Source: Escherichia phage 04086 | DNA length: 64,000 nt | Sequence record: OR842557 | Reading direction: 5' to 3' (one strand) | Shown here: positions 2,358 through 60,317 of the stretch, piece by piece | Layout of the letters: each line of letters opens with the position of its first letter | Position numbering within the stretch: position 1 is the stretch's first letter | Notes under the pieces: model-generated | The model's input: only the letters and a program-made list of their open reading frames with translations | Databases searched by the model: none | What the model was told of the DNA's origin: nothing | Position numbers and translations under genes: made by a program

Positions 2358-2618
2358 ATGAAATATATTAATCGTTCTATTGCAGCTCTTGTACTAGCCG
2401 TTTCGTTGGTTGGTTGTACTGATGCTGATAATGCTACCCGTGTATTGGATGCAAATGGCTACGAACAAATCCAAATCACAGGATACAACCTATTTGGCTG
2501 CTCTGAAGATGATTTCCAACGTACAGGCTTTATTGCTGTAGGTCCGACAGGTAAAAGGGTTGAAGGAACAGTTTGTTCCGGGTTATTCTTTAAAAAGTCT
2601 ACCATTCGATTTGATTAA
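2358..2618 (+). CDS. Putative lipoprotein (86 aa)
   Basis: N-terminal signal peptide ending in lipobox LVGC; followed by UUCG hairpin terminator. Confidence 0.6.
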   Translation: MKYINRSIAALVLAVSLVGCTDADNATRVLDANGYEQIQITGYNLFGCSEDDFQRTGFIAVGPTGKRVEGTVCSGLFFKKSTIRFD

Positions 2619-2908
2619 GGGCTTCGGCCCTTTTATGCTTTAAGTGAAATGGGATAATATTCTCCTACTACATGAGGAAATAACATGATTAAGAATGAAA
2701 TTAAAGTACTGTCCGACATTGAACATNCGGTCCGACGGGTAAAAGGGTTGAAGGAACAGTTTGTTCTGGGTTATTCTTTAAAAAGTCGACCATTCGATTT
2801 GATTAAGGGCTTCGGCCCTTTTATGCTTTAAGTGAAATGGGATAATATTCTCCTACTACATGAGGAAATAACATGATTAAGAATGAAATTAAAGTACTGT
2901 CCGACATT
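2546..2908. repeat. N-marked junction (N at 2727) between two ~180 bp near-identical direct copies; probable unmerged overlap of adjoining sequence segments
   Basis: Copy 2 repeats lipoprotein 3' end, terminator and first 42 nt of gene 39; 3 synonymous differences between copies. Confidence 0.8.
2619..2636 (+). terminator. Rho-independent terminator (UUCG tetraloop hairpin plus T-run)
   Basis: GGGCTTCGGCCC followed by TTTTAT. Confidence 0.6.
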
Positions 2909-4690
2909 GAACATATCAAAAAACGTAGTGGGATGTATATTGGCTCCAGTGCTAATGAAGCTCACGGTCGATTCCTGTTTGGTAATTTTACACAGGTAAA
3001 CTATGTTCCTGGACTAGTTAAATTAATTGACGAAATCATTGATAACTCTGTCGATGAAGCTATTCGTACCAATTTTAAATTCGCAAATAAAATTGATGTT
3101 CAAATTAAGAATAACCAGGTTTCAGTTTCTGATAATGGTCGTGGTATTCCACAAGCAATGGTCACCGACCAAAATGGTGAACAGATTCCAGGTCCTGTAG
3201 CAGCATGGACTATTCCAAAGGCGGGTGGTAACTTTGGAGATGACGCTGAGCGTAAGACAGGCGGCATGAATGGTGTCGGTAGTAGTTTAACTAATATCTT
3301 CTCCGTTTTGTTCACAGGCATCACCTCTGATGGCGAGAATGAAATTACAGTTAACTGTTCCAATGGAATGGAAAACAAAGGTTGGTCTACTAAGAAATCT
3401 AAAGGTAAGGGTACTTCGGTTATATTCACTCCAGACTTTAATCATTTTGAAGAGAACTCTCTATCACAAATTTATCTGGATATTACTCTAGATCGTCTTA
3501 AAACTCTAGCTGTAATTTATCCTAGTATCCAATTTACTTTTAATGGTAAAAAAGTAGATGGTAACTTTAAAAAGTATGCTAATCAATTTGGTAAAGATGT
3601 AGTAATTCAAGAAACCGATAATGTCTCAATGGCATTTACCACATCTCCGGATGGATTCCGTCACCTAACTTATGTGAACAATATTCATACTAAGAATGGT
3701 GGTCATCATGTTGAATGTGTGTTTGATGATATCTGCGAACATCTCTTGCCAGGCATCAAGAAGAAATATAAAGGCATCGAAGTAAGTAAGGCCCGAGTTA
3801 AAGAATGCTTAACTATGCTGATGTTCATTCGCGATATGAGTAATATGCGTTTTGATTCCCAGACTAAAGAACGTTTGACGTCACCATTCGGTGAAATTCG
3901 TAACCATATTCAAATTGATGCAAAGAAAATCTCACAGTATATTCTTAAAGACGAAGGGTTGATTATGCCTATCGTTGAAGCTGCTTTAGCACGTAAATTA
4001 GCAGCTGAAAAGGCTGCCGAAACTAAAGCCGCTAAGAAAGCTTCTAAAGCCAAGGTCCATAAGCATATTAAAGCTAACTTATACGGCAAAGATGCTGATA
4101 CAACCCTGTTCCTAACCGAAGGTGATTCCGCTATGGGTCCTTTCATTGAAGTCCGTAATAAAGACCTTCAAGGTGGTTATCCGTTACGTGGTAAGGTTAT
4201 GAATACCTGGGGAATGACAGCAACAGATATCATGAAGAACAAGGAACTATTTGATATCTGTGCAATCACTGGACTGGTTATTGGTGAACCTGCAGAGAAA
4301 ACCAACTATCGTAATATCGCTATCATGACCGATGCTGATGTGGATGGTACTGGTTCGATTTATCCATCATTGCTAGCCTTCTTTAGTCAATGGCCTGAAT
4401 TGTTCGAACAAGGTCGAGTGCGGTTCTGTAAAACTCCGGTAATTATTGCTCAGGTGGGTAAAGAACAGGAATGGTTCTATGATGTCCCTAGTTATACCAA
4501 AGCTAAGGACTCTCTACCAAAACATTCTATTCGTTATATCAAAGGACTAGGTTCTCTTGAGAAGGCCGAATACCGTCGAATGATTCAAGACCCTAAATTT
4601 GATGTGGTTCAATTGCCTGAAGATTGGAAAGAACAGTTCGAAATGCTCCTCGGAAACGACCCTCAACTCCGTAAGGCCTGGATGTCGTAA
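2873..4690 (+). CDS. 39: DNA topoisomerase II large subunit, ATPase (GyrB-like), full-length unsplit form (605 aa)
   Basis: Recalled similarity to T4 gp39; length matches the fused 39+60 form; no gene 60 / mobA insertion. The true start is the second copy after the N junction. Confidence 0.9.
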   Translation: MIKNEIKVLSDIEHIKKRSGMYIGSSANEAHGRFLFGNFTQVNYVPGLVKLIDEIIDNSVDEAIRTNFKFANKIDVQIKNNQVSVSDNGRGIPQAMVTDQNGEQIPGPVAAWTIPKAGGNFGDDAERKTGGMNGVGSSLTNIFSVLFTGITSDGENEITVNCSNGMENKGWSTKKSKGKGTSVIFTPDFNHFEENSLSQIYLDITLDRLKTLAVIYPSIQFTFNGKKVDGNFKKYANQFGKDVVIQETDNVSMAFTTSPDGFRHLTYVNNIHTKNGGHHVECVFDDICEHLLPGIKKKYKGIEVSKARVKECLTMLMFIRDMSNMRFDSQTKERLTSPFGEIRNHIQIDAKKISQYILKDEGLIMPIVEAALARKLAAEKAAETKAAKKASKAKVHKHIKANLYGKDADTTLFLTEGDSAMGPFIEVRNKDLQGGYPLRGKVMNTWGMTATDIMKNKELFDICAITGLVIGEPAEKTNYRNIAIMTDADVDGTGSIYPSLLAFFSQWPELFEQGRVRFCKTPVIIAQVGKEQEWFYDVPSYTKAKDSLPKHSIRYIKGLGSLEKAEYRRMIQDPKFDVVQLPEDWKEQFEMLLGNDPQLRKAWMS

Positions 4691-4733
4691 TAAATATGTA
4701 TGGTACATGAGTGCCATACAATTAGGAGACTTT

Positions 4734-4886: not shown

Positions 4887-4890
4887 TTAA

Positions 4891-7705: not shown

Positions 7706-8872
7706 ATGTACAATATTAAGTGTCTGGCTAAATCTGAACAAGAGAAAGTAGTTTCCCTCTATAAATCCGGTAATTATACTCAGCAAGAATTAGCTGACTG
7801 GTATAGTGTTTCGGTTGATACCATTCGTAAAGTCCTGAAAAATGCTGAAGAAGCTAAACGTTCTCAAGTGGCTAAAGAATTAGCCGAATCTCTTAAAAAA
7901 GCACCTACTGTACCTCTTAACGCCCCAACAGAAGTGGTTATTACTGGAAATATCAAAGTAACGGTTCCTAACGAGCCTCGTGTAGTTCCGGTTGATATTA
8001 CTATTGGTGGTTCTCGTCCAGAAATTATCTGGAATGCTAGTTCTAAATTCGTGTCCATCACCGAAGGCCGTACAGTATGGAACACCACTAATAAGAACAA
8101 ACATTTTGATGCCATCGTACAGGCTCTTAAAGAATCTCGTTTTGACGACGCGATTAAACTGATTTCCATTAAAGAAGCTGTTAAGGCCTTCGTCAAAGGT
8201 AACGTTCGTATTGAAGGCGGACGTCTGGTTTATCAAGGTATCGAATTGCGTTCCGGTTTGATTGACCGTATTATCACCTCAATGGAAAATGGCGAAGACT
8301 TCGAATTCTACCTGCCGTTCCTTGAGAACCTGTTAGAAAACCCAAGTGAAAAAGCTGTACAGCGTCTGTTCGACTTCTTGGTCGCGAACGATATCAAAAT
8401 CACTGAAGACGGCCACTTTATCACATGGAAGGTGGTTAACTCCGATTACACCGACTGCCGTACTGGTACGTTTGATAANNNTGAAAAAGCTGTACAGCGT
8501 CTGTTCGACTTCTTGGTCGCGAACGATATCAAAATCACTGAAGACGGCCACTTTATCACATGGAAGGTGGTTAACTCCGATTACACCGACTGCCGTACTG
8601 GTACGTTTGATAACTCACCAGGCAAACCGGTTAAAATGCCTCGTTCACGTGTAAACAATGACGACACAGTAACTTGTTCAAGCGGTCTACACGTTTGCTC
8701 TCGTAGCTATATCGGCGCATTTGGTAATTCAAACAACCGTGTAGTTTCATGTAAAGTTAACCCACGTGATGTTGTTAGTATTCCTGTTGATTATGGCGAT
8801 GCTAAAATGCGCGTATGTTATTATGAAGTTCTGGAAGACGTTACCGATCAGTTTAAATCAGATTTACGTTAA
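7706..8872 (+). CDS. rIIB: rIIB protein; annotated length inflated by a 135-nt in-frame duplicated segment with NNN
   Basis: Position downstream of rIIA; real length about 343 aa after removing the duplicated copy. Confidence 0.85.
   Translation: MYNIKCLAKSEQEKVVSLYKSGNYTQQELADWYSVSVDTIRKVLKNAEEAKRSQVAKELAESLKKAPTVPLNAPTEVVITGNIKVTVPNEPRVVPVDITIGGSRPEIIWNASSKFVSITEGRTVWNTTNKNKHFDAIVQALKESRFDDAIKLISIKEAVKAFVKGNVRIEGGRLVYQGIELRSGLIDRIITSMENGEDFEFYLPFLENLLENPSEKAVQRLFDFLVANDIKITEDGHFITWKVVNSDYTDCRTGTFDXXEKAVQRLFDFLVANDIKITEDGHFITWKVVNSDYTDCRTGTFDNSPGKPVKMPRSRVNNDDTVTCSSGLHVCSRSYIGAFGNSNNRVVSCKVNPRDVVSIPVDYGDAKMRVCYYEVLEDVTDQFKSDLR
8348..8612. repeat. N-marked junction (NNN at 8479-8481) between identical direct copies inside rIIB
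   Basis: 131-nt segment GAAAAAGCTGTACAGCG...GTTTGATAA present twice, separated by NNN. Confidence 0.85.
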
Positions 8873-10243: not shown

Positions 10244-10321
10244 ATGTGGTGTCTTATTTGGATGGCCTGTATCCCAGTGATTTGTGTATGTTTTAGTTTA
10301 TTGTTGTGGAAATTGGCATAA
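10244..10321 (+). CDS. Possible small hydrophobic peptide (25 aa)
   Basis: MWCLIWMACIPVICVCFSLLLWKLA; below ORF-track threshold; speculative. Confidence 0.25.
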   Translation: MWCLIWMACIPVICVCFSLLLWKLA

Positions 10322-10324
10322 AAC

Positions 10325-10375
10325 AGTATACATCTCCATTAATCATGATATTATAGACATATCAACTAATGGAGA
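10325..10375 (+). promoter_or_regulatory. Early promoter inside stem-loop cassette
   Basis: GTATAC 10325-10330, TATTAT 10349-10354; inverted repeat TCTCCATTA / TAATGGAGA. Confidence 0.5.
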
Positions 10376-11982: not shown

Positions 11983-13678
11983 ATGGAATTAACATCTCGT
12001 GGTTTAAAAAGTATTATCGACAACGAAGCATTGGCTTATGCAATGTATACTGTCGAAAACCGAGCCATTCCGAATATGATTGATGGCTTTAAACCTGTAC
12101 AACGTTTTGTAGTGGCTCGTTGTCTTGATATGGCTCGTGGTAATAAAGAAAAATTCCACAAACTCGCTTCTATTGCTGGCGGCGTAGCCGACCTTGGATA
12201 TCACCACGGTGAAGGTTCTGCTCAGGAAGCAGGGGCTTTGATGGCTAACACATGGAATAACAACTATCCATTGTTAGATGGTCAGGGTAACTTTGGTTCC
12301 CGATTGGTTCAAAAAGCTGCGGCCTCTCGTTATATCTTTGCACGTATTGGAAGTAACTTTNGGCTTCTATCGCTGGTGGTGTAGCCGACCTCGGATATCA
12401 CCACGGTGAAGGTTCTGCTCAGGAAGCAGGGGCTTTGATGGCTAACACATGGAATAACAACTATCCATTGTTAGATGGTCAGGGTAACTTTGGTTCCCGA
12501 TTGGTTCAAAAAGCTGCGGCCTCTCGTTATATCTTTGCACGTATTGGAAGTAACTTTGCAAAAGTTTATAAGGACACAGAATATGCTCCGGTTCATGCGG
12601 ATGTCGAACATAAGCCACCGGCTTTTTATCTGCCTATTATTCCTACTGTTCTTCTTAATGGCGTTTCCGGTATTGCAACTGGTTATGCAACTAATATTCT
12701 TCCTCATAGTTTTGATTCTGTTAAGAAAGCTGTATTGCAAGTTCTTCAGGAAAAACGAGTAACAAAACCTAAAGTGGCTTATCCTGAATTCCGTGGTGAA
12801 GTTGTTGAAATTGAACCAGGTAGTTATGAGATTCGTGGAACGTATAAGTTCACATCCCGAACCCAAATGCATATCACGGAAATCCCGTACAAATATGACC
12901 GTGAAACATATGTGGCCAAGATATTAGACCCTCTGGAAGACAAAGGGTATATCACATACGATGACGATTGTGATGAGAATGGTTTCGGCTTCAAGGTTAA
13001 GATTCGTAAAGAATACGAATTGCCTACTGATGAAGATAAGAAACACGAAAAAATCATGAAGGACTTCGGGTTAATCGAACGTCGTTCACAAAACCTGACC
13101 GTCATTAATGAAAAAGGTAAACTTAAGGTTTACGAAGATGCAGTTGAACTGATTCGTGATTTCGTTGAGGTCCGTAAGACCTTTGTACAAAAACGTATTG
13201 ATGGTAAAATCATCGAAACCGAANCATGAAGGACTTCGGGTTAATAGAACGTCGTTCACAAAACCTGACTGTCATTAATGAGAAAGGTAAACTTAAGGTT
13301 TACGAAGATGCAGTTGAACTGATTCGTGATTTCGTTGAGGTCCGTAAGACCTTTGTACAAAAACGTATTGATGGTAAAATCATCGAAACCGAAGAAGCTT
13401 TCAAACTAGCATTGGCTAAAGCCACATTTATCAAAGATGTTATTGATGGTGTAGTGGTTATCCAAGGTAAGACTCGTAAGGTTTTAACCGAAGAATTGGC
13501 CGGTAATAAAGTCTATGGCGAATATGCCGATAAACTAGTGGCCATGAACATTTTCCATATCACTTCTGATGAAGCTAAGAAACTGGCTTTGGAAGCCAAG
13601 GCTAAGAAAGAAGAGCATCAATATTGGAAAACCACTGATGTGGTAACTGAGTATGTTAAAGATTTGGAGGCTCTATGA
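11983..13678 (+). CDS. 52: DNA topoisomerase II medium subunit (GyrA-like); split into three ORFs in the track by two N-junction duplications
   Basis: N-terminal region recalled as similar to T4 gp52; real length about 443 aa after removing duplicated copies. Confidence 0.9.
12165..12557. repeat. N-marked junction (N at 12361) between ~196 bp near-identical copies inside gene 52
   Basis: Second copy starts with 4 synonymous third-position differences then becomes identical. Confidence 0.8.
13055..13393. repeat. N-marked junction (N at 13224) between ~169 bp near-identical copies inside gene 52
   Basis: CATGAAGGACTTCGGGTTAAT...GAAACCGAA repeated; 3 synonymous differences. Confidence 0.8.
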
Positions 13679-13802: not shown

Positions 13803-13820
13803 GGTTTAGTGCAAAAAAGT

Positions 13821-13860
13821 GTTTACTTCTGCTTTAAACATGATACTATAGACCTATCAA
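13821..13860 (+). promoter_or_regulatory. Early promoter cassette
   Basis: GTTTAC 13821-13826, CATGATACTATAGACCTATCAA core shared with several other cassettes. Confidence 0.55.
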
Positions 13861-17194: not shown

Positions 17195-17737
17195 TTATTT
17201 GAAAAATCTCTTATACCAAGGCTTCCGTTCTTTTTCAGGCCACGCAGGGAATTCACCACCTAAATGCTCATGCTTTTCTAAAAGAGCAAAGAACCGTTTA
17301 AGGTTTTGATGATAGAATTTTTCCTTTTTATCAGCGACTGAAGCTTCAACCATATTACTTAATACCTGGAATTCTTTGTACAATTCTTCAATTTTTCTAT
17401 TACGAATTAAAACACGTTTATAGGTTTCGTCTTCTTTCCAACCATCGTCAGTCCATATGTCAAATTCGCCAGGCTCATCAAAAGCTATACCAACCGGGCT
17501 TCCTATGTCATTTATTAAGATTTCTTCTTTATTAAAAGTCCAGGCACGTTTGCCTCGATGGTCTTCTTCATAAATCCAATCTTGAATGCGTTCGTCAAAT
17601 ACAATCGCATATCCTTCTTTAGGTTCTAAAGGTTTTTTAGCTGTTGAATGGGCAGGAAGGCCAAGACCTTTAACAGGTTTGTAATTTTCTTCTTTGTAAA
17701 ATTCTTTTGTGTCAAAATAAAAATGATAAATTTTCAT
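17195..17737 (-). CDS. 38: Tail-fibre assembly chaperone gp38, T4 type (180 aa)
   Basis: Near-identical to recalled T4 gp38 (MKIYHFYFDTKEFYKEENYKPVKGLGLPAHST...). Confidence 0.95.
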   Translation of the reverse strand: MKIYHFYFDTKEFYKEENYKPVKGLGLPAHSTAKKPLEPKEGYAIVFDERIQDWIYEEDHRGKRAWTFNKEEILINDIGSPVGIAFDEPGEFDIWTDDGWKEDETYKRVLIRNRKIEELYKEFQVLSNMVEASVADKKEKFYHQNLKRFFALLEKHEHLGGEFPAWPEKERKPWYKRFFK

Positions 17738-17740
17738 ATT

Positions 17741-17758
17741 CAGAAGGGGCCGAAGCCC
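17741..17758 (-). other. UUCG-tetraloop hairpin in the 37-38 intergenic spacer
   Basis: - strand reads GGGGCTTCGGCCCC; no T-run follows, so probably an RNA stability or processing element rather than a terminator. Confidence 0.4.
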
Positions 17759-17764
17759 CTCTCC

Positions 17765-20700: not shown

Positions 20701-20938
20701 AGTTTCCAAAATTGTTTAATGGGCCATTAATGCGTAAAGTTCCAGTAATAGTTACATCGCCATCAACTTGTCCACCTTTTGCAAAGCCCAAATCAATAAT
20801 CTGTCCCTGGTCGGACTTGGTAAAAATAGTGCGGTCACGCAAGTTAATAGCCAGTTCGCCTTCATCTAACTGAGCTGCAGTAGGCTTGGCTCCTGGTGTT
20901 TTACTTCTTTTAAATTGTATCGATTTTAAAGTAGCCAT
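17765..20938 (-). CDS. 37: Long tail fibre distal subunit gp37 (1057 aa)
   Basis: Size, position, and C-terminal His-rich HxH repeats ([24 protein letters not shown]) typical of T4-type gp37 tip. Confidence 0.95.
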
Positions 20939-26727: not shown

Positions 26728-26735
26728 TATTTATA
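26728..26735 (-). promoter_or_regulatory. Late promoter (TATAAATA) for gene 34
   Basis: Reverse complement of 26728-26735 is TATAAATA about 30 nt upstream of gene 34 start codon. Confidence 0.65.
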
Positions 26736-26742
26736 GCAAAGT

Positions 26743-30635: not shown

Positions 30636-30646
30636 GGCATTTAACG

Positions 30647-31352: not shown

Positions 31353-31354
31353 AT

Positions 31355-32747: not shown

Positions 32748-34859
<2,112 letters not shown>

Positions 34860-35280: not shown

Positions 35281-37705
35281 ATGCAAGTACAAAAAAGTAG
35301 TGGTGTATCCCAAGATTTTGACGCACAAAAAATTATTAAAGTTCTGACTTGGGGCTGTGAAGGAACCCAAATCGACCCCTATGAATTATACGAAGAAATC
35401 AAATCTCATCTTCGTGATGGTATGACTACCAAAGATATCCAAAATCTGACTGTTAAGGTAGCAGCCAACCTTATTTCAGTTGAAGAGCCTGATTACCAAT
35501 ATGTTGCTGCAAAGCAATTGATGTTTGCACTGCGTAAAGAAGTTTATGGCCAGTTCGAACCACGTAGCTTTATCGACCATATTTCCTATTGTGTTAACGA
35601 AGGTAAATATGACCCTGAATTGCTGTCTCGATATTCTGCAGAAGAAATTACTTTCTTAGAATCTCATATCAAGCATGAACGTGACTTTGAATTGACCTAT
35701 GCAGGTGCGATGCAGCTGAAAGAGAAATATCTGGTTAAAGATAAGACTACGGGTAAAATCTACGAAACCCCTCAGTTCGCTATCATGTGTATTGGCATGG
35801 CCTTACACCAAGAAGAGCCAGGTAATCGTTTGGCACATATTATTCGTTTTTATGATGCTGTAAGTACCCGTCAGGTTTCATTACCAACTCCTATTATGGC
35901 TGGAGCACGTACACCTACCCGTCAATTTAGTTCTTGTGTGGTTATTGAAGCAGGCGACTCACTGAAATCTATTAACAAAACTGCTAACTCAATAATTGAA
36001 TACATTTCTAAACGTGCAGGTATTGGTATCAACGTTGGTATGATTCGTGCTGAAGGTTCTCGTATTGGCATGGGTGAAGTCAAACATACTGGCGTTATTC
36101 CATTCTGGAAACATTTCCAGACTGCTGTTAAATCATGTTCACAAGGTGGAATCCGTGGCGGCGCTGCTACTGCTTATTATCCTATTTGGCATTTGGAAGT
36201 TGAAAATCTGCTCGTTCTGAAAAACAACAAAGGCGTAGATGAGAACCGTATTCGTCATATGGACTACGGAATCCAGATGAACGACCTTATGATGGAACGT
36301 TTCGGTAAAAATGATTACATCACGCTGTTTAGTCCTCATGAAATGGGTGGTGAGCTTTATTATTCTTATTTCGAAGACCAAGACCGTTTCCGTGAATTGT
36401 ATGAAGCAGCTGAAAAAGACCCTAGTATTCGTAAGAAACGTATTAAAGCACGTGACCTCTTCGAATTGTTCATGACCGAACGTTCAGGCACTGCACGAAT
36501 TTATCCTCAGTTCGTTGATAACACTAACAACTTCACACCATTTATTCGTGAAAAAGCTCCTATTCGACAGAGCAACTTGTGTTGTGAAATTGCTATCCCG
36601 ACTACTGACGTGAATAGTCCGGACGCCGAAATTGGTTTGTGTACGTTGTCTGCATTTGTGCTGGATAACTTCGATTGGCAGGACCAAGACAAAATCAACG
36701 AGCTCGCTGAAGTCCAGGTACGTGCACTTGATAACCTATTGGACTACCAAGATTATCCTGTTCCTGAAGCTCTGAANTGTGAATAGTCCGGACGCTGAAA
36801 TCGGATTGTGTACGTTGTCTGCATTTGTGCTGGATAACTTCGATTGGCAGGACCAAGACAAAATCAACGAGCTCGCTGAAGTCCAGGTACGTGCACTTGA
36901 TAACCTATTGGACTACCAAGATTATCCTGTTCCTGAAGCTCTGAAGGCCAAGAAACGTCGTAATCTGGGTGTTGGTGTTACGAACTATGCAGCTTGGTTA
37001 GCAAGCAACTTTGCTTCTTATGAAGACGCAAACGATTTAACTCATGAACTGTTTGAGAGATTACAATATGGGCTTATCCGAGCATCAATCAAGTTGGCCG
37101 AAGAAAAAGGACCTTGCGAGTATTATTCAGACACTAAATGGTCTCGAGGCGAATTACCTATCGACTGGTACAATAAAAAGATTGACCAAATCGCAGCCCC
37201 TAACTATGTTTGTGACTGGACGTCGTTGCGGGAAGACTTGGCTAAACATGGCATCCGTAATAGCACATTATCAGCACTTATGCCGTGTGAATCAAGCAGC
37301 CAGGTTTCCAACTCTACAAACGGCATCGAACCTCCACGTGGTCCGGTAAGTATTAAAGAATCTAAAGAAGGTAACTTCCGTCAGGTAGTTCCTAATGTAG
37401 AACATAACCAAGGGCTCTACGATTACGCTTGGACCCTCGCTAAGAAAGGTAATAAACCTTATCTTACCCAAGTGGCAATAGCGTTGAAATGGGTGTGTCA
37501 ATCGGCATCAGCTAATACATATTATGACCCGCAGATTTTCCCAAAAGGAAAAGTTCCGATGTCAGTAATGCTTGATGACCTGCTGTATTTCTGGTACTAC
37601 GGTGGTAAGAACCTTTACTATCATAACACCCGTGATGGCTCTGGTACTGATGACTACGAAATCGAAACTCCTAAAGCCGACGATTGTGCAGCTTGTAAGC
37701 TTTAA
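35281..37705 (+). CDS. nrdA: Ribonucleotide reductase large subunit (class Ia), split in the ORF track by an N-junction duplication
   Basis: Recalled RNR alpha motifs (ATP-cone N-terminus, SSCVV, NLCCEI, C-terminal CAACKL-type tail). Confidence 0.9.
36609..36945. repeat. N-marked junction (N at 36777) between ~167 bp near-identical copies inside nrdA
   Basis: Second copy begins with synonymous differences (GACGCCGAAATTGGT versus GACGCTGAAATCGGA) then is identical. Confidence 0.8.
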
Positions 37706-41186: not shown

Positions 41187-41894
41187 ATGAATATGCAAAT
41201 GATTACTAACGAAATGGTTGTTAAGGCTTTTGGTGACTCTACTGACGGTATCCAAGTTTTTAAAGGTTCTCGTGCAGTAGGTTACCTGACCGATCTTCGT
41301 GTTACTTTAGCTAAAAATGCTAAAAAGAAAATCAAGCAAAAAGAATACTCTACCCGTTATGCAGAAGAAAAGCGTGAAGCCATGCCCGAAGCTGTTAACT
41401 CTATGGTTGAGTTTCTCCGAAACAACCTTTCCAAGTACGATGCCGAGGTGTTCATTAATATTAGCCAACCCAATGTTAAAATCTCAGGTATCACTTTCTA
41501 TTTGATTTGTGACCCATTAAGCGACAAGTTTAATCGCCTTGGCATTTCAAGTCCTTACCATACCGCTGAAGAATTGTGTTTTATGTTCGAAACGTACAAA
41601 ATTCAGTGTGAAAATCCTAAAACAGTTCTTATTAATTCCCTGTCACGTGATGACATCATCGAGATTATTACCAAATGTCTAANTAAAATCTCAGGCATCA
41701 CGTTCTATTTGATTTGCGACCCATTAAGCGACAAGTTTAATCGCCTTGGCATTTCAAGTCCTTACCATACCGCTGAAGAATTGTGTTTTATGTTCGAAAC
41801 GTACAAAATTCAGTGTGAAAATCCTAAAACAGTTCTTATTAATTCCCTGTCACGTGATGACATCATCGAGATTATTACCAAATGTCTAAATTAA
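41187..41894 (+). CDS. alc: Probable Alc (host transcription termination/inhibition) protein; length inflated by N-junction duplication
   Basis: Position between rnlA and pseT region; real length about 167 aa as in T4 Alc. Identity rests on position and size. Confidence 0.55.
   Translation: MNMQMITNEMVVKAFGDSTDGIQVFKGSRAVGYLTDLRVTLAKNAKKKIKQKEYSTRYAEEKREAMPEAVNSMVEFLRNNLSKYDAEVFINISQPNVKISGITFYLICDPLSDKFNRLGISSPYHTAEELCFMFETYKIQCENPKTVLINSLSRDDIIEIITKCLXKISGITFYLICDPLSDKFNRLGISSPYHTAEELCFMFETYKIQCENPKTVLINSLSRDDIIEIITKCLN
41477..41889. repeat. N-marked junction (N at 41683) between ~206 bp near-identical copies inside alc
   Basis: Second copy starts with three synonymous third-position differences. 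Confidence 0.8.
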
Positions 41895-42235: not shown

Positions 42236-42695
42236 TTAAATTATCTGTAGTAGTATTATCTATTGGCTTGTTAGTTGGATGTGCCCAGGATGTCCCTGTA
42301 GTGCCTAAGCAACAACTGCATCCTTCATGGCCACAACCTATCGCCGAACATAATGTTAAATGGCAGGTTAAGGTAATCGATGGTAAGGCCTGGGTTGGAA
42401 TGCCATTTGAAGATTCCCAAGAACATCGTATTTGGTTGAATGACGTAAAAAGATATGTACAANCATCCCTGTAGTGCCTAAGCAACAACTACATCCTTCG
42501 TGGCCACAACCTATCGCCGAACATAATGTTAAATGGCAGGTTAAGGTAATCGATGGTAAGGCCTGGGTTGGAATGCCATTTGAAGATTCCCAAGAACATC
42601 GTATTTGGTTGAATGACGTAAAAAGATATGTACAAGACCAGAAATCTATGTTATGTTATTATCGTTCCGGCCTAAAAGAGGAGAAGTGCAAATGA
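42232..42695 (+). CDS. pseT.2: o-spanin (Rz1-like outer-membrane lipoprotein); duplicated by N-junction
   Basis: Signal peptide with lipobox LVGC, proline-rich mature region; real length about 97 aa. Confidence 0.7.
42290..42636. repeat. N-marked junction (N at 42463) between ~173 bp near-identical copies inside the o-spanin gene
   Basis: Two synonymous differences at the start of copy 2. Confidence 0.8.
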
Positions 42696-45942: not shown

Positions 45943-46714
45943 TGAAAGCAAGCACATACCTTCAGATTGCATATCTGATTTCTCAAGAATCAAAATGTTG
46001 TTCATGGAAAGTGGGTGCGGTTATCGAAAAGAATGGTCGCATTATCTCTACAGGCTATAATGGTTCACCATCCGGTGGTGTTAACTGTTGTGACCACGCT
46101 GTGGAACAAGACTGGACCCGTGTTGTGTATGACCCAGCGCGGATGTCGCATAAATCTGTTCTTCTTAAAGAACACCGCATGGCTCACGCTGCATGGTCAT
46201 CTAAAAATGAAATCCATGCCGAACTGAATGCTATTTTGTTTGCAGCTCGTACCGGAAGTTCTATTGATGGCGCTACGATGTANATAACGGTTCGCCTTCT
46301 GGTGGTGTTAACTGTTGTGACCATGCTGTGGAACAAGACTGGACCCGTGTTGTGTATGACCCAGCGCGGATGTCGCATAAATCTGTTCTTCTTAAAGAAC
46401 ACCGCATGGCTCACGCTGCATGGTCATCTAAAAATGAAATCCATGCCGAACTGAATGCTATTTTGTTTGCAGCTCGTACCGGAAGTTCTATTGATGGCGC
46501 TACGATGTACGTGACGTTATCTCCGTGCGCTGATTGTGCTAAGTCTATTGCGCAGTCCGGAATTAAAACATTGGTTTATGCTGAGCTCTATGACCGAAAT
46601 CCTGAAGGTTGGGACGATATCCTCCGTGAATCAGGCATCGAAGTTATCCAGTATAATCGTACAGGTCTCCGTTCTTTGAACTGGGAATCAATTCAAAACT
46701 ATTGCGGTGAATAA
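45942..46714 (+). CDS. cd: dCMP deaminase; split by N-junction duplication
   Basis: Recalled similarity to T4 Cd (SKCCSWKVGAVIEKNGRIISTGYNGSP, HAELNAILFAAR, YVTLSPC.DCAK zinc-binding motif). Confidence 0.9.
46057..46509. repeat. N-marked junction (N at 46283) between ~226 bp near-identical copies inside cd
   Basis: Copy 2 begins with several third-position differences, then identical. Confidence 0.8.
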
Positions 46715-48808: not shown

Positions 48809-48830
48809 GTTTCTAAATCTTTAAAAAAGG

Positions 48831-48875
48831 GTGTACATCTCCGGTAGGCATGATACTATAGACATGTACCAAATA
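48831..48875 (+). promoter_or_regulatory. Early promoter variant with stem-loop
   Basis: GTGTAC 48831-48836, 17 bp, TACTAT 48854-48859; inverted repeat GGTA / TACC arms flank the -10. Confidence 0.5.
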
Positions 48876-49236: not shown

Positions 49237-49285
49237 TTTTACTTTGGTACAGGTTGTGTTATTATAGACCTGTACCAAATAATAC
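49237..49285 (+). promoter_or_regulatory. Early promoter with stem-loop
   Basis: TTTTAC 49237-49242, 17 bp, TATTAT 49260-49265; inverted repeat GGTACAGGT / ACCTGTACC spans the -10. Confidence 0.55.
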
Positions 49286-49306
49286 GAAAACAAACTGGAG
49301 AATAAA

Positions 49307-49672
49307 ATGAACTACATCAACTTCGAACGTAAATATGTTTCTAACGGTATCGCTGGTTCTTCTGAAGTTATTTGCCTGTGGAAACACAACAACGGCGCGG
49401 TGTGCGAAATCGAACAGTGCATGACTCCTAACTACGTTTATATGCGCTTTGAAAATGGTATTACGGTTTCAATCACATTGGAAGGTTCTACTTTTAAAAT
49501 CGCTTTAGATGATGATTTCCGTCAACGTGATTTAGGTACCCATCCTTGCTGGAACGGTGTTAATCGTAAGCTTCTGGTTAAAACTTGGATTCGTCACATC
49601 CTGAGCAACCGAGCTAAACCTGAACACCTGGAAGCAATCTTTGATGTAGTTCTGAACGAATTCGACATCTAA
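49307..49672 (+). CDS. Hypothetical protein (121 aa)
   Basis: Same leader sequence as the 48901 gene. Confidence 0.55.
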   Translation: MNYINFERKYVSNGIAGSSEVICLWKHNNGAVCEIEQCMTPNYVYMRFENGITVSITLEGSTFKIALDDDFRQRDLGTHPCWNGVNRKLLVKTWIRHILSNRAKPEHLEAIFDVVLNEFDI

Positions 49673-50418: not shown

Positions 50419-50631
50419 ATGATTAAGAAATTATTTAAAAAGCTGTTTGGCTTGGAACTGGTTGAAGTGACTTATCGTGTTATTGATTTATCACCGCCAT
50501 ATGCTTGCGATGAAGATGCTATTAAAACTGTTGTTATGCGAAAAACATATCGCGGGCAGTCAATTAAAGAAAGATTGCCAGACCATGGCATGTGGTATGC
50601 AACCAAGATTATCGGTGTCAAAGATGTCTGA
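50419..50631 (+). CDS. Hypothetical protein (70 aa), tandem paralog of 50197..50409
   Basis: See previous. Confidence 0.6.
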   Translation: MIKKLFKKLFGLELVEVTYRVIDLSPPYACDEDAIKTVVMRKTYRGQSIKERLPDHGMWYATKIIGVKDV

Positions 50632-53765: not shown

Positions 53766-55661
53766 ATGTCCGAACAATTGAATGAGGTATTTGACGGCGC
53801 TATAGATTTATCAGCTGTCAATTTAAACCCTAAACTTAAAGTACCACAGATTTGGAATATAAAGGCTGAAGGTAATGAGAACCTTGTTGCACGCATGGTT
53901 TCATATACTTCTGAAGGTGATACAATCCGCCAAGTTAAACCGGGTGACAAATACGTTCATATTATTTTAATGAGCCTATCATCTAAAGGGGCCCCGGCAG
54001 AACTCAAAGGTGGTTTAGGTAGTAACCCCATTTCCGCTATTCGTTCTATATTTGATACGGTTTATGAACAAGTTAAAAAGCTCCGTATGGATGCCGTTAT
54101 GTTCCGTTTTCCTACTAAGAAAATGAAAGGTCAGGAAAAAGCTGTACAACGAGTTCTAGCCAAATTAATAGCTACTAGAGCAGGTGGGCAATTCAAGGTC
54201 CTTGATGCCTTGTATCAATATACAGGCAAACATTCATATGTTTTTATCTATCGTAAAAATAAAAATATAGAATCAATAAACGGTATTCCTAATATTAATC
54301 CGGAATTGTATACTAAAGTCGAATCTGAAGTCGGTGATGTGTATGTTTCAAAGAAAACAGGCGAAGATGTTACCAAATTAGAAGCTATAGCTAAGTCTAT
54401 AGACGAAATAGAAAAATCACGTTCTGATAAAATGGTTATAACCAAGACTAAGGTTTCTAAACGGGCCGCTATAAATGCGTTATATTCTACCGCCGAGCCT
54501 ACAGGATTGAGTAAATTTTCGGCAGAGCACAAAAAAGCTTATGCAGATTATTCTGCTACTAGTTCCGTTCATTCTTCTGAAGATTCTAAAGAAAGCCAAA
54601 TAGCTTTAGCCAGTAATAAAATATTAAAAGACGCCTCTAAAGAAATGGCAGAATATTTGGATTATATTTTTAACGGTGTTAATCCATCATTTGAAGTAGA
54701 CGAGCGCAAACTTAAACTAATTGCTGATATAAAGTTTGCTTTAGAGGCATCAGATTCTTTAGATAAATCTAATAGTGTCATAGAGGCTTTAAAATCAGGT
54801 AAATCTCATGTAGACATTCTTAGACTAGTCGCTGCGGCCCTTTTAGATGATTCAGTTAAAGGTACTTGGGCTAGAGAATCTAAAATCAAGGAAGTAATAA
54901 AATCCTTAGTAGCAGTTTATACAAAATCTATCCAACCGTTGTTTAAGATATCTGATAATCCTAATTTATCCAAACCTCAAGAAGAGGCAGTCAAAAAGTA
55001 TACTCGTGGCGGCTACAACCATATAAACAACTTTTTGCTAGGTAAAACAGATACCACCGATGAAATGATAAAAATGATTGGTGAGTTGGATTCTACATTT
55101 GAAAATGGTACAAAACTTCCTAAAGGAACCATAGTGTATCGTTCTCAGATAATGCCTACCGAAATGGCTTTGAATTCTATAAAACATAAGGTGATGTATC
55201 TTCCTATTTTTGCATCAACTTCATTGGCTCCTAATATTTTCGGTGAAATGGGTCATGCTCAATCCAACTTAGACCCTGAAGCTCTTTCTAGCGATATAGA
55301 TAGTAATCTTGAAGACACCATTAAAAGTGCGACCGGAAGTGCTAGAGATACCATTAAGCTAGGGCTAATTATTAAAGGTGCTGATAAAATTAAGGTTATT
55401 GTGCCCGGTGACTTGGCTAATTGGTCTACAGAAACCGAAGTAATTCTTCCTCGTGGGGTTATGCTTAAGATTAATAAAGTATACGGTGCTTCCAAGGGAC
55501 CTATGGGTTCAATTGGTAAATATGTTTTAGTGGAATGTGAAGTTGTAGCTACAGAGCAAATCACAGAGGAAAATTCATATAGCACCGGATTCTCGTTTGG
55601 AAATTATGATAGAATTATGTATGAAGATTCTATGGAAAAATTAGCAAATTTATTTAAATAG
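53766..55661 (+). CDS. alt: Alt-family ADP-ribosyltransferase, paralog 1 (631 aa)
   Basis: N-terminal module shared with the next two genes; C-terminal ADP-ribosyltransferase motifs YRSQ (Arg), FASTSL (STS) and ETEVILPRG (E-x-E); location between 30 and 54 as for T4 alt. Confidence 0.8.
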   Translation: MSEQLNEVFDGAIDLSAVNLNPKLKVPQIWNIKAEGNENLVARMVSYTSEGDTIRQVKPGDKYVHIILMSLSSKGAPAELKGGLGSNPISAIRSIFDTVYEQVKKLRMDAVMFRFPTKKMKGQEKAVQRVLAKLIATRAGGQFKVLDALYQYTGKHSYVFIYRKNKNIESINGIPNINPELYTKVESEVGDVYVSKKTGEDVTKLEAIAKSIDEIEKSRSDKMVITKTKVSKRAAINALYSTAEPTGLSKFSAEHKKAYADYSATSSVHSSEDSKESQIALASNKILKDASKEMAEYLDYIFNGVNPSFEVDERKLKLIADIKFALEASDSLDKSNSVIEALKSGKSHVDILRLVAAALLDDSVKGTWARESKIKEVIKSLVAVYTKSIQPLFKISDNPNLSKPQEEAVKKYTRGGYNHINNFLLGKTDTTDEMIKMIGELDSTFENGTKLPKGTIVYRSQIMPTEMALNSIKHKVMYLPIFASTSLAPNIFGEMGHAQSNLDPEALSSDIDSNLEDTIKSATGSARDTIKLGLIIKGADKIKVIVPGDLANWSTETEVILPRGVMLKINKVYGASKGPMGSIGKYVLVECEVVATEQITEENSYSTGFSFGNYDRIMYEDSMEKLANLFK

Positions 55662-55669
55662 GATAGATT

Positions 55670-57751
55670 ATGACCCAATTAAATGAAGTGTTCGAGTCCG
55701 AAGGTACACTGCCTGTTGTGAACTTGAACCCAAAACTTAAAGTACCTCAGATTTGGAAGATTGGAGACGCGGAGTCTCAGTTAGTAGCACGTATGGTATC
55801 CTACGCTTCTGAAGGTGATGCTATTAAACAAGTTAAAATGGGTGATAAATATGCCCACGTTATCCTTATGAGCCTTTCAGCTAAAGGTTCGCCTGCCGAA
55901 CTTAAAGGCGGCTTAGGCCCTACTCCTGTAGATGCGATTAATACTATTTTTGATGTAGTTTATGACCAAGTTAAAAAGCTTCGTATGGATGCCGTGATGT
56001 TCCGTTTTCCTACCAAGAAAATGAAAGGTCAAGGCCCTATCGTTCAACGTATTATCCAACGTTTGGTAGCACAGAAAACCGGTGGACGTTTTAAAGTGGT
56101 TCCGGCTATGTACCAATTTACCGGTAAACATACTTACATCCTGGTAGTCCGTAAACAAGCTGATATCGAAGATATCAAAGGTATGCCTGGAATTAATGCT
56201 GAATTGTATACTAAGGTAGATTCTGATGTCGGTGAAGTTTATATTTCCAAAAAAGAAGGTGTGCAGGTTACTAAAGAAACTGCTATTGCTGGCAGTATTG
56301 CTAAGGTTGAAGAACGTCGCACTGATAAAATGGTTATAACCAAGACTAAGATTTCTAGGCGCGCCATTGCAGCAAGCCAATCATTGGAATCTTATCGTAA
56401 TGAAAGTGAATTGTTTAAGAAATATGAAGCTACTGCAGCGGATTTTAATAAACCGGCAACAGTTCCATTAATCCCTGAGGCTCAGGAAATGGTTACTAAT
56501 AACAATTCTCCTGCGGCTAAAAATAAGGTTGCTAATATAGTGGCTGAAGGCACTGCTGAAGAATTGCATTACGATTATAAAATGTTTCCTCTTCACGGTA
56601 TAGGTGAAATCCAAGAGAAAATTAAAGAGAAAATTCTTACAGCAATAAAAAACGAACCTTTGACATCTGTTAAAGCTCTAGAAAAATATGCCTCTGCTAT
56701 TAATACCGTTTTCGAAGAATACAAAGGTGAATGGCTGGCTATCCATAACAGAACTCGTAAAGGCCAACCTGATGACCTTTGGAACGAATTGACAGAGGCC
56801 AAGTGGAAAGCAGCCAAGACTAAGTTCATTAAAAAACGTGTATATAGTTTTGCTGGTGTGGGTGGCGGTATTATGGTTGATATTACTATTGCTCGTGAGG
56901 GCTCTAAATATACCCCATCACAAAAGCGCGGAATCAGAGAATATTGTGGTTCAGGATATACAGACATAAATAATCTTCTTTTAGGACGTTATAATCCTCA
57001 GAACTATGAGGTTATGAGCGAAAAAGATATCGAATCTGCAGTTAATAATTTGGATTCTGCTTTTGAAAACGGCGACCGTATACCAGAAGGCATCACAGTT
57101 TATCGCGCACAGAGTATGACTGCTCCTATATACGAAGCACTAGTTAAAAATAAAGTGTTCTATTTCAGAAATTTTGTATCTACTTCTTTAACTCCTATCA
57201 TTTTCGGACGTTTTGGTGTTACCCACGCAGGTATTGGTCTTTTAGAACCTGAAGTTCGCAATGAATTGACAGTCGATAAAAATGAAGAAGGAATAACTAT
57301 TAACCCTAATGAAATAAGAGCGTATAAAGAAAACCCTGATTACGTTAAAGTTCAAATAGGATGGGCAATTGATGGAGCCCATAAAGTTAATGTCGTATAT
57401 CCAGGAAATCTCGGAATAGCAACTGAAGCCGAAGTTATTCTGCCGCGTGGATTAATGGTCAAAGTTAATAAAATAACAGATGCTTCTAATAATGATGGAA
57501 CAACATCTAGTAATACAAAACTCATCCAAGCTGAAGTTATGACAACAGATGAGCTTCAAGAATCTGTGGTATATGATGGTGACGTACTAATGGAAACCGG
57601 CGAGCTGGTCGTGTATCAAGATGATTTCGATACTTCCGAAAGCCCTGTATCTTTTGATTCATTTGTTAAATCTACACGGTTTGATGTACTGCCTCTTTTG
57701 GCTTCATGCATAGACCTCTATGACATCCCAGAAAAATTCATCCAAGGGTAA
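55670..57751 (+). CDS. alt: Alt-family ADP-ribosyltransferase, paralog 2 (693 aa)
   Basis: Same N-terminal module; motifs YRAQ, FVSTSL, EAEVILPRG; size closest to T4 Alt. Confidence 0.85.
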   Translation: MTQLNEVFESEGTLPVVNLNPKLKVPQIWKIGDAESQLVARMVSYASEGDAIKQVKMGDKYAHVILMSLSAKGSPAELKGGLGPTPVDAINTIFDVVYDQVKKLRMDAVMFRFPTKKMKGQGPIVQRIIQRLVAQKTGGRFKVVPAMYQFTGKHTYILVVRKQADIEDIKGMPGINAELYTKVDSDVGEVYISKKEGVQVTKETAIAGSIAKVEERRTDKMVITKTKISRRAIAASQSLESYRNESELFKKYEATAADFNKPATVPLIPEAQEMVTNNNSPAAKNKVANIVAEGTAEELHYDYKMFPLHGIGEIQEKIKEKILTAIKNEPLTSVKALEKYASAINTVFEEYKGEWLAIHNRTRKGQPDDLWNELTEAKWKAAKTKFIKKRVYSFAGVGGGIMVDITIAREGSKYTPSQKRGIREYCGSGYTDINNLLLGRYNPQNYEVMSEKDIESAVNNLDSAFENGDRIPEGITVYRAQSMTAPIYEALVKNKVFYFRNFVSTSLTPIIFGRFGVTHAGIGLLEPEVRNELTVDKNEEGITINPNEIRAYKENPDYVKVQIGWAIDGAHKVNVVYPGNLGIATEAEVILPRGLMVKVNKITDASNNDGTTSSNTKLIQAEVMTTDELQESVVYDGDVLMETGELVVYQDDFDTSESPVSFDSFVKSTRFDVLPLLASCIDLYDIPEKFIQG

Positions 57752-57754
57752 ATA

Positions 57755-60317
57755 ATGGAAAATTTAAACGAGGTTTTTGATAGTGATTCCGCTAAAAACT
57801 ATCCAGTAACAAATCTTAAACCGGGTTCCGGTATTCCACAGATTTTCTCTATCCAAGCACCAGGTAACGATAACCTGGTTGCTCGCATGGTATCTTATGC
57901 GTCTGAAGGCGACGCTATTAAGATGGTTAAGGCGGGCGATAAGTACGTCCATGTTATCTTAATGAGTTTATCTGCTAAAGGCGCTCCGGCAGAACTCAAG
58001 GGCGGTTTGGGTACCGATCCACTCGGTACACTGAACACCATTTTCGATACCATATATGAACAAATAAACAAACTTAAAATGGACGCGGTTTTATTCCGTT
58101 TCCCTACTAAGAAAATGAAAGGTAAGGGCCCTACCGTTCAGCGCGTATTAGCTCGTTTGGCTATGGCCCGTACCGGTGGTAAGTTTAAAGTTGTTGACGA
58201 CATGTTCCAATTCAGCGGAAAACATACCTACGTTCTTTTAGTACGTCGTGGTGCTAATATTGAAGATATCAAGGGTATGCCTGAAATTAATGCCGATCTT
58301 TATACTAAAGTTGAGTCTAAAGTTGNAGGTCCTACCGTTCAGCGCGTATTAGCTCGCTTGGCTATGGCTCGTACCGGTGGTAAGTTTAAAGTTGTTGACG
58401 ACATGTTCCAATTCAGCGGAAAACATACCTACGTTCTTTTAGTACGTCGTGGTGCTAATATTGAAGATATCAAGGGTATGCCTGAAATTAATGCCGATCT
58501 TTATACTAAAGTTGAGTCTAAAGTTGGCGAAGTGTATGTTTCTAAGAAAACCGGCCAGGCNTAAGGGCCCTACCGTTCAGCGCGTATTAGCTCGTTTGGC
58601 TATGGCCCGTACCGGTGGTAAGTTTAAAGTTGTTGACGACATGTTCCAATTCAGCGGAAAACATACCTACGTTCTTTTAGTACGTCGTGGTGCTAATATT
58701 GAAGATATCAAGGGTATGCCTGAAATTAATGCCGATCTTTATACTAAAGTTGAGTCTAAAGTTGGCGAAGTGTATGTTTCTAAGAAAACCGGCCAGGCCG
58801 TAAGTAAGGTCGAAGCAGTAGCGGCATCTATTGCACAAGTTGAAGAGAAACGTACCGATAAGGCTGTCATTACCCGTACTAAGATTTCCCGTCGTATGGC
58901 AGCAGCCGCGCAGTATTCTACTGCTGAGCCTGAAACTTTGTCCCCTAAAGAATTGCAGGTTTATAACGAGTTTGAAGCTTCTGTACCGGTTCACACGGCT
59001 GAAGGCCCTGAGAATGAAGGTATTGAACAGATTAGTCAGAACTTTAAAAAAGGTGCTATTACTAAAATGCGCCAGGCTTCTCAGTTTAAATCTAAGAGCG
59101 AGGACCTTGCCAACTTTAGATACACTATTGCCCTCACGCACGCTTTAATGACTGATAGTAAATTTAAACTAAATTATGCTAATAGAGATAAACAAGGGTT
59201 TGAAATTTACTCTAATAATATGGCATTTTTTAATACAGAAGTCGATAGACTTTTAAGTGGTCTTTCGCAAATCAATACAACCAATAGTCTGGATATTATT
59301 AAGAAAATTGTTAATAACTTGAGTGCTCGTTTTAAGGGTTCCCCTTCAGAAAAGGCCTCTCGAATTGCTTTCGCTATGGAAGCCGTTTATAAACTGGTTA
59401 ACGATTCTATTAGTGATGCATATGCTTATTCAGGCGAGCTCATTAAACCTAAGGACCTAACCAAAGACGAAAGCAATGCTATTATTGAATATTGCGCAGC
59501 TGAATATGCTCCTATGAACTTATTCCTTTTAGGTAAACCTGAATCCGAAAACAATACAACGGCTATTAAATTGATTAAGGATTTAGACTCAGCATTTACT
59601 AAGGGTATTAAACTTCCTAAGGGTACTATTTTGTATCGTGGTCAGGATTTGCCATACAAAATTCTGCGCCATAATATCGATAACAAAACATTTTACTTTA
59701 AGAACTTTGTGTCAGCCTCATTAAAGCCTAACATCTTTGGTGAATTTGGTAAAAATTATATGGCCCTCGACAACCAAGCCGTTTTTGTTGGCGGCGAAGG
59801 TTCTTTATCCTCCGCTGATGAGTTGTTTAAATTGGCTAGCGGTAGTTCATCTGATGTGGGTGAAGTCGATGACGAAGAGGTAGAATGGGAAGAAGACGAG
59901 TTCGGTAATCCAATTGCGCCCGAAGGTCCTGCGGATAGAATTGCTGAAATTGGTATGGTTATTCGAGGTGCTGAAGCAGTTAAAGTTATCGCTCCTGGTG
60001 ACCTTACAGAATATGCCGAAGAAGCAGAAATTATCCTTCCGCGTGGGTTATTGTTGAAGGTTGATAAAGTAGCGGCTTTTGCTATGAATGATAGAGTATC
60101 TCACAAATACCTTATGGAAGCTACCGTAACACCTCCTTCAGAGCTCAGTGAATCTGTTTACGATGGTGACCATTTGATGGAAACTGGTGAAGTTCGCCTG
60201 ATGGACGGCTTTAAACAGTTCTTGGTTAGTGAATCCATTTCTGAAAGTAACGAGGCTATGGAAATCCTTGCTGCATCTTTGGATATCTCTTCTTTATCAA
60301 ATAAATTCAAAATGTAG
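57755..60317 (+). CDS. alt: Alt-family ADP-ribosyltransferase, paralog 3; annotated length inflated by two N-junction duplications
   Basis: Same N-terminal module; motifs YRGQ, FVSASL (STS variant), EAEIILPRG; real length about 705 aa. Confidence 0.8.
58123..58800. repeat. Three overlapping copies of ~200-235 bp inside alt paralog 3 separated by N at 58326 and 58561
   Basis: Copy 2 extends further 3' than copy 1 and carries 3 synonymous differences; copy 3 matches copy 1. Confidence 0.8.

Follow-up and report, generated by a model that had tools for sequence, protein, structure and literature searches.

Duplications at the N sites of the Escherichia phage 04086 record very probably represent overlapping contigs joined without merging

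We analysed a stretch of 64,000 nucleotides from Escherichia phage 04086 (record OR842557; hereafter the window) and observed that all of its N characters lie between direct copies of the same sequence. These duplications are very probably overlapping assembly contigs of a T4-like phage of the Dhakavirus type, which were joined unmerged and marked with N. The genes that are split or lengthened at the N sites are an error of the record and not biology.

The window contains 14 N characters at 12 sites (2727, 8479-8481, 12361, 13224, 34180, 34404, 36777, 41683, 42463, 46283, 58326 and 58561), exactly those listed in a preliminary description of this DNA, and no other ambiguity codes. At every site (12/12), the suffix of the left segment, 132-237 nt long, recurs ungapped as the prefix of the right segment with 91-100% identity. 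In site order, the overlaps measure 187, 132, 196, 169, 223, 226, 168, 206, 172, 226, 200 and 237 nt, and each holds 0-6 mismatches, except in td, where there are 18. The copy length of 130-235 bp given in the preliminary description was thus essentially right. Its twelve pairs hold as a count of N sites, but 34180/34404 and 58326/58561 form two triples, which it had missed. A repeat scan of the whole window found no direct repeat of ≥97% identity and >100 bp outside the N sites, and the association between N and duplication is therefore both complete (12/12) and exclusive. The segments delimited by the N sites range in size from 223, 234, 779 and 862 nt up to 20,955 nt. The junctions, to which no strand is assigned, are as follows.

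J1, 2540..2914: left end 2540-2726, N at 2727, right start 2728-2914; 187-nt overlap with 4 differences, at offsets 1, 10, 40 and 61; correction, delete 2727-2914.
J2, 8347..8613, in rIIB: copies 8347-8478 and 8482-8613, 132 nt, identical; NNN at 8479-8481; 45 extra in-frame codons, giving an rIIB of 388 aa instead of 343; correction, delete 8479-8613.
J3, 12165..12557, in gene 52: copies 12165-12360 and 12362-12557, 196 nt; N at 12361; 5 differences within the first 31 nt; frameshift; correction, delete 12361-12557.
J4, 13055..13393, in gene 52: copies 13055-13223 and 13225-13393, 169 nt; N at 13224; 3 differences within the first 58 nt; correction, delete 13224-13393.
J5/J6, 33954..34630, triple in td: main end 33954-34179; N at 34180 and 34404; in the middle a 223-nt variant contig, 34181-34403, with 18 differences at offsets 23-113; on the right the main start, 34405-34630, 100% identical to 33954-34179; correction, delete 34180-34630, giving a td of 287 aa.
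J7, 36609..36945, in nrdA: copies 36609-36776 and 36778-36945, 168 nt; N at 36777; 4 differences within the first 28 nt; nrdA broken into 501 and 308 aa; correction, delete 36777-36945, giving an nrdA of 751 aa.
J8, 41477..41889, 3' end of alc and start of the i-spanin gene: copies 41477-41682 and 41684-41889, 206 nt; N at 41683; 3 differences within the first 34 nt; in-frame insertion that gives an alc of 235 aa; correction, delete 41683-41889, giving an alc of 166 aa.
J9, 42291..42635, in the o-spanin gene: copies 42291-42462 and 42464-42635, 172 nt; N at 42463; 4 differences within the first 37 nt; correction, delete 42463-42635, giving an o-spanin of 96 aa.
J10, 46057..46509, in cd (dCMP deaminase): copies 46057-46282 and 46284-46509, 226 nt; N at 46283; 5 differences within the first 41 nt; correction, delete 46283-46509, giving a cd of 181 aa.
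J11/J12, 58123..58798, triple in the third alt paralog (alt-3): main end 58123-58325; N at 58326 and 58561; in the middle a 234-nt variant contig, 58327-58560, with 4 differences, all within the first 43 nt; on the right the main start, 58562-58764, 100% identical to 58123-58325; correction, delete 58326-58764, giving an alt-3 of 707 aa.

J1 takes in the 3' end of 39.1 and extends across the intergenic region into gene 39, of which it covers the initial 42 nt. The identity of the o-spanin gene follows the PSD9 annotation SPAN2_BPT4. In both triples, the main contigs overlap each other perfectly around the short variant contig (226 nt in td, 203 nt in alt).

We then collapsed each junction by deleting every N together with one copy, which removed 2,356 nt in all and shortened the window to 61,644 nt. 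In the deposited form, gp52, td, nrdA, o-spanin, cd and alt-3 carry frameshifts. After collapse, every affected gene becomes one open reading frame, with lengths of 605 aa for gp39, 343 for rIIB, 442 for gp52 (once J3 and J4 are both collapsed), 287 for td, 751 for nrdA, 166 for alc, 117 for i-spanin, 96 for o-spanin, 181 for cd and 707 for alt-3. Each of the ten can be aligned over its full length, without a gap and at 97-100% identity, to its counterpart in at least one of the phages AnYang, E33 and PSD9, with which they are collinear; rIIB, at 343 aa, is gap-free against AnYang. The preliminary description had named the start of 39, rIIB, 52, td, nrdA, alc, o-spanin, cd and alt paralog 3 as affected, which is correct, and its proposal that segments had been joined without merging is borne out by the restored reading frames and by the single copy that relatives carry at each site.

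The Dhakaviruses AnYang (MK234886), vB_EcoM-E33 (OL780484) and PSD9 (MZ561532) share the gene order of the whole window at ~92-96% nucleotide identity, with AnYang as the best GenBank phage match (95.6%). Each of them has one copy at each site, to which both window copies map, and carries every affected gene once, at the length found in the collapsed window. The complete relative IMGVR_UViG_641509422 (170,523 nt) is likewise single-copy. The genotype of the window is identical to none of the three named phages, and its distal tail-fibre module is unlike that of AnYang.

T4-type phages can form tandem duplications, as is known from classical rII duplication genetics, which counts in favour of genuine short tandem duplications in the phage DNA, with N as an unresolved base at each novel joint. 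J2 and J8 also happen to be in frame. Most of the insertions, however, shift the frame and would together break gp52 (twice), td, nrdA, o-spanin, cd and alt-3. Moreover, N occurs at 12/12 novel joints and nowhere else, with no joint read as contiguous sequence, and all relatives are single-copy. Fresh copies would also be identical to each other, whereas we observed co-segregating alleles of other phages at one end, and the triples are arranged as main, variant and main contig. Genuine duplication is already close to refuted and is considered extremely improbable.

Comparison of the copies identified 50 sites of difference, with 45 at third, 5 at first and 0 at second codon positions (binomial p ~1e-16; positions at J1 and at the edges were derived from the 39.1 and gene frames). 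At J1, 4/4 differences fall at third positions of the 39.1 frame (ORF 2358-2618). Among the 42 differences scorable in complete codons, 37 are synonymous, and the substitutions comprise 34 transitions and 16 transversions. No difference lies beyond the first 28-113 nt of an overlap, and the last 110-191 nt are identical in every case. J2, in rIIB, is the exception, a homotype with zero differences between the copies. Thus, the third-position excess of the preliminary description holds when tabulated, as does its placement of the differences in the first 30-110 nt of the right-hand copy. The variation is strictly one-sided, being restricted to right-hand contigs and there to the 5' end, a point that the earlier description did not make.

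The variant base is present in AnYang, E33 or PSD9 at 41/44 testable sites, and the variants are therefore not sequencing errors but genuine alleles that belong to a second Dhakavirus genotype. This agrees with the preliminary description, which had judged that the pattern was not random read error and that segment ends came from a slightly different template; the variants are mostly synonymous natural alleles of other Dhakaviruses. Alleles co-segregate within a junction. At J3, for example, the left copy carries the AnYang alleles and the right copy those of PSD9 and E33. In td, the main allele is 100% identical to PSD9 and ABTNLS3, and the variant contig is 98.7% identical to E33, LQ5 and LHE83. 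The J10 variant reaches 96.6% identity at best, and the phage closest to the variant ends differs from junction to junction.

Heterologous primers, which the preliminary description had offered as another source of the segment ends, do not fit these data. In favour of stitched amplicons from PCR or primer walking, with primers designed on a related phage, the differences lie at segment ends and match related-phage alleles, and at J3, J7 and J8 they fall within the first 28-34 nt. The offsets of 41-113 at J1, J4, J5, J10 and J11, however, exceed any primer. Primers would be expected at both ends, but the 3' ends of the left segments match their neighbour for ≥110 nt; J2 has no differences, and segment sizes of 223-20,955 nt fit no amplicon design. 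We consider this origin very improbable.

A less remote alternative, which is still unlikely, accepts unmerged overlaps but derives the variant ends from a reference genome that guided or padded the assembly, or from contamination by another sample, and not from a genotype that truly co-occurred. The variant stretches are very short and their alleles resemble WG01-like or IME08-like Dhakaviruses, which are common in databases. Against this, no single record fits all variant ends (the best match is 98.7% for td and 96.6% for J10), the best-matching phage varies by junction, and padding would not normally yield duplications. We likewise rejected the idea that one known reference had supplied every variant end, as no one known genome matches them all.

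Joins of this type, N between overlapping flanks, also termed heterotype false duplication, are already documented. Chen et al. described an artefact in which Ns are put in at scaffolding although the flanks overlap; it was seen with assemblers that scaffold short reads (IDBA-UD, CLC), and was connected with the fragmentation of assemblies by mixed strains. As in the window, a short N run stands between identical suffix and prefix copies, and the cure is to delete the Ns plus one copy. In contrast to the published cases, most overlaps here are non-identical, with second-genotype alleles in the first 28-113 nt of the right contig, and two sites have an extra mini-contig. Ko et al. 2022 (Genome Biol; PMC9516828) described heterotype false duplications in which a gap separates the two copies; their diagnostics include such gaps and variant-specific k-mers. 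Here too, a single scaffold contains two adjacent allelic versions separated by a gap, and gene models are inflated or broken; except at J2, the copies differ by genuine allelic variants. Their cases concern haplotypes of diploid animals over kilobases to megabases, whereas ours concern genotypes of a phage population or mixed lysate over ~0.2 kb. According to the scaffold_builder paper, overlapping sequential contigs are common and many reference-based scaffolders leave overlaps unmerged. Our literature search turned up no software that marks unmerged overlaps with a single N, and a published evaluation of scaffolders was uninformative.

We conclude that the window is very probably scaffolded from 13 or more assembly contigs of a Dhakavirus-type T4-like coliphage, in which neighbouring contigs truly overlap by 132-237 nt. 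A scaffolding or joining step in software would have missed or failed to merge these overlaps and abutted the contigs, with N as a placeholder at each join (NNN in one case). The breaks and the failed merging most likely came from reads of two closely related Dhakavirus genotypes, the second of which, judging from the alleles, was probably in the same sample or library. Nine right-hand contigs, at their extreme 5' end, and two mini-contigs (223 and 234 nt), over their whole length, would then carry alleles of the minor genotype; those of the major genotype would be found in the left contig and in the main contigs that flank the mini-contigs. Since the variation is one-sided, we suggest a directional step after contig orientation, for example gap closing or the extension of reads in one direction, over a distance of roughly one read length.

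No symmetric assembly model accounts for the strict polarity. A simple de Bruijn model, with k-1 overlaps or a symmetric-flank bubble, was rejected on three counts: the identical tails vary in length (110-191 nt), the variant contigs begin 0-25 nt ahead of the first variant, and the base that follows each left-contig end is invariant among relatives. A chimeric scaffold that alternates between strains was also rejected, as in the 400-nt flanks the closest relative does not change systematically from one side of a junction to the other. Ordinary T4-type mosaicism is all that these flanks display. It is conceivable, but improbable, that the contig breaks mark short-patch exchange (~30-110 nt, in conserved early genes) between two co-replicating Dhakavirus genotypes. 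On this view, the variant ends and mini-contigs would capture tracts of recombination or gene conversion in a mixed phage population, and their one-sidedness would come from a directional biological process and not from software.

For unmerged contigs, the importance of the finding is limited to data hygiene. Spurious sequence in the deposited record amounts to 2,356 nt; it breaks or lengthens rIIB, gene 52, td, nrdA, alc, o-spanin, cd and alt-3 and adds a false 5' fragment of gene 39, nine genes in all; automatic annotation would therefore give pseudogenes, split genes and nonexistent 'duplications'. The sequenced material or library very probably also held a second, closely related Dhakavirus genotype, which is relevant if the phage is meant as a pure isolate for therapy or typing. 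Scans of the window for tRNAs and against Rfam, which have no bearing on the junctions, gave no tRNA and no match; the Pfam families, equally without bearing on them, were the expected phage families alone (Collar, Gp34_trimer and Phage_30_3).

We found 14 N characters at 12 sites in the window (J1 to J12), exactly at the coordinates listed in the preliminary description, and no ambiguity code other than N. At each site, the L bases ending at the N were compared with the L bases after it. All 12 gave an ungapped suffix/prefix match of 132-237 nt (0-6 mismatches in eleven comparisons, 18 at the td site), so every N does lie between direct copies, as described there. An independent whole-window repeat scan recovered the same N-flanking blocks and no other direct repeat in the window of at least 97% identity and more than 100 bp. 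Since all N sites are duplicated and no other such repeat occurs, the association between N and duplication is complete and exclusive, beyond chance. The Ns delimit 13 segments of 2726+, 5751, 3879, 862, 20955, 223, 2372, 4905, 779, 3819, 12042, 234 and 5439+ nt.

Two N-marked loci, in td (J5/J6) and in the third alt gene, alt-3 (J11/J12), are triples rather than pairs. The outer copies are 100% identical in both (33954-34179 and 34405-34630 across 226 nt in td; 58123-58325 and 58562-58764 across 203 nt in alt-3). The td middle copy, or mini-contig (34181-34403, 223 nt, between two Ns), departs from the outer copies at 18 positions, and that of alt-3 (58327-58560, 234 nt) has 4, all in its first 43 nt. 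Each mini-contig starts exactly 3 nt past the start of the downstream main contig. With identical outer copies and a variant middle, the main contigs thus overlap perfectly at both triples, and a mini-contig with another allele is placed between them.

The 64-kb window (G+C about 39-40%) shows collinearity with T4-like coliphages of the Dhakavirus type. Escherichia phage AnYang comes nearest (95.6% identity across the first 17 kb); E33, PSD9 and further phages reach 92-94%. The gene order, by the annotations of AnYang, E33 and PSD9, is motB-39-rIIA-rIIB-ndd-52-tail fibres-rnh-32, then frd-td-nrdA-nrdB-alc-spanins-pseT-cd-31-30, then three alt genes and the baseplate. No tRNA genes and no Rfam matches were found in the window. 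In AnYang, and also in E33 and PSD9, the two copies of a pair fall on a single place; these relatives are therefore single-copy. We collapsed the window by deleting each N with its right-hand copy; at triples the deletion ran on to where the third copy ends. In total 2,356 nt were removed, no N remained, and every affected gene became a single ORF.

Deletions that collapse the window, with collapsed protein lengths
2727-2914: J1, gene 39.1/39; gp39, 605 aa
8479-8613: J2, rIIB (window 7706-8872); 343 aa
12361-12557: J3, gene 52; gp52, 442 aa
13224-13393: J4, gene 52; as for J3
34180-34630: J5/J6, td (window 33545-34859); 287 aa
36777-36945: J7, nrdA; 751 aa
41683-41889: J8, alc/i-spanin; alc 166 aa, i-spanin 117 aa
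42463-42635: J9, o-spanin; 96 aa
46283-46509: J10, cd; 181 aa
58326-58764: J11/J12, alt-3; 707 aa

Collapsed lengths equal those of AnYang except for alc, annotated there at 171 aa. Against at least one relative, all ten proteins align over their full length without a gap, and the best-matching relative of each shows 97-100% identity. Collapsed rIIB is gap-free against AnYang and has a 22-residue indel against PSD9 and E33. T4 td has a group I intron; collapsed td, in contrast, is uninterrupted and has none. As the preliminary description anticipated, genes in the deposited form are artificially lengthened or split: rIIB and alc carry 45 and 69 extra in-frame codons, gene 52 is three ORFs, td, nrdA, cd and alt-3 are two ORFs each, o-spanin is cut short, and gene 39 proper is preceded by a spurious 5' fragment of itself. 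A phage bearing all these lesions, with an undetermined base at each novel joint, is not credible. The window is best read in collapsed form, after these ten deletions.

Entering each junction once, we counted 50 differences between copies (34 transitions, 16 transversions). Third codon positions account for 45 of them (binomial p about 1e-16 versus one third) and first positions for the other 5, with no difference at a second position. Among the 42 scorable in complete codons, 37 are synonymous; the four at J1 are all third positions of gene 39.1. This bias points to selection-filtered variation rather than sequencing error. The right-copy base is present in at least one of AnYang, E33 and PSD9 at 41 of 44 sites with a readable homologous base, and alleles co-segregate inside each junction. 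These data indicate that the variant ends derive from a real second Dhakavirus genotype, matching no single database genome, which agrees with the earlier view of a slightly different template rather than random read error. PSD9 and/or E33 match right-copy alleles at J1, J3, J5, J7, J8, J9 and J11, and AnYang matches left-copy alleles at J1, J3, J4, J9 and J11. In td, PSD9 and ABTNLS3 match the main allele at 100% identity, and E33, LQ5 and LHE83 match the variant mini-contig at 98.7%. The J4 variant end reaches 99.1% identity to IME08-type phages, that of J10 at most 96.6% to anything known. Padding from a reference, or cross-sample contamination, may instead have supplied the variant ends but is not favoured, since no single known genome accounts for them all. 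In practice, the evidence excludes true tandem duplications: every joint carries N, frameshifts result, relatives are single-copy, and the copies are allelic, not identical.

No difference lies beyond the first 28-113 nt of an overlap, and the last 110-191 nt are always identical (combined probability of such clustering about 1e-21, conservative and assuming uniform placement). Only the right-hand contig deviates, at its extreme 5' end, and never the left-hand one at its 3' end; this applies to each of the nine paired junctions and the two triples showing any difference. At five junctions, the right contig's very first base is already a variant site. Heterologous PCR primers, previously offered as a source of the variant ends, are rejected: the differences extend to 113 nt and lie at one end only of each segment, J2 has none, and segment sizes are unlike those of amplicons.

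The best-supported explanation is that the duplications are an artefact of assembly and scaffolding; such record errors are known, and the duplications are not a biological element. The suffix/prefix matches, single-copy relatives and genes restored on collapse uphold the proposal of overlapping segments joined without merging. Mixed reads from two close genotypes most likely fragmented the assembly within conserved early genes. Neighbouring contigs would have kept overlapping ends, and the joining step would have left these unmerged, partly because the overlap starts with mismatches, and written a placeholder N instead. Chen et al. describe exactly this error, prescribe removal of the Ns and the duplicate, and note that de Bruijn assemblies break up when close strains coexist, a point that the COBRA paper (PMC10914622) also makes for phage contigs. 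The counterpart in larger genomes is 'heterotype false duplication', where a gap separates the two copies (Ko et al. 2022, PMC9516828). A plain k-1 overlap model does not fit: the identical tails vary in length, and left contigs do not end at positions varying among relatives. One-way read extension or gap closing after contig orientation could give this geometry; such extension would be limited to roughly one read length, and no overlap exceeds 237 nt. In the 400-nt flanks, the closest relative did not change systematically from one side of a junction to the other. J2, J3, J5/J6, J9 and J10 lie near borders between conserved and divergent (about 85%) segments relative to WG01-like phages, which fits breaks between contigs at mosaic boundaries. 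The only curiosities left are the signs of a second genotype in the material sequenced and the one-sidedness of the variant ends.

Beyond the N-flanking blocks, the repeat scan picked up three alt paralogs, a family of promoter-like sites and two short local repeats.

Remaining repeats in the window
131-178, +: early-promoter-like site, 48 nt
10318-10365, +: the same
13813-13860, +: the same
26735-26782, +: the same
30639-30686, +: the same
31347-31394, +: the same
48823-48870, +: the same
53766-55661, 55670-57751, 57755-60317: tandem alt (ADP-ribosyltransferase) paralogs, 63-72% nucleotide identity
48851-48905 / 49257-49311: direct repeat, 55-nt promoter/RBS/start-codon block, 93% identity
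50197-50273 / 50419-50495: direct repeat, 77-nt N-terminal coding block, 78% identity

Because AnYang, E33 and PSD9 annotate the same three-gene array, the alt array is a real, conserved gene triplication, unlike the N-marked repeats. The seven 48-nt sites resemble T4 early promoters (GTTTAC ... GATACTATAGAC), with 69-100% identity to the reference copy, and all lie upstream of early genes. The 55-nt block precedes two adjacent small ORFs, and the second copy of the 77-nt block heads a Phage_30_3 family protein.

The distal tail-fibre module (17195-20938, - strand) differs from that of AnYang. It holds a gp37-like ORF of 1057 aa with a Collar domain and a downstream 180-aa ORF with no match in a Pfam search, whereas AnYang has a 1323-aa fibre protein and a 262-aa adhesin. 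Megablast similarity to AnYang ends at 17197, which suggests that the receptor-binding module has been swapped.
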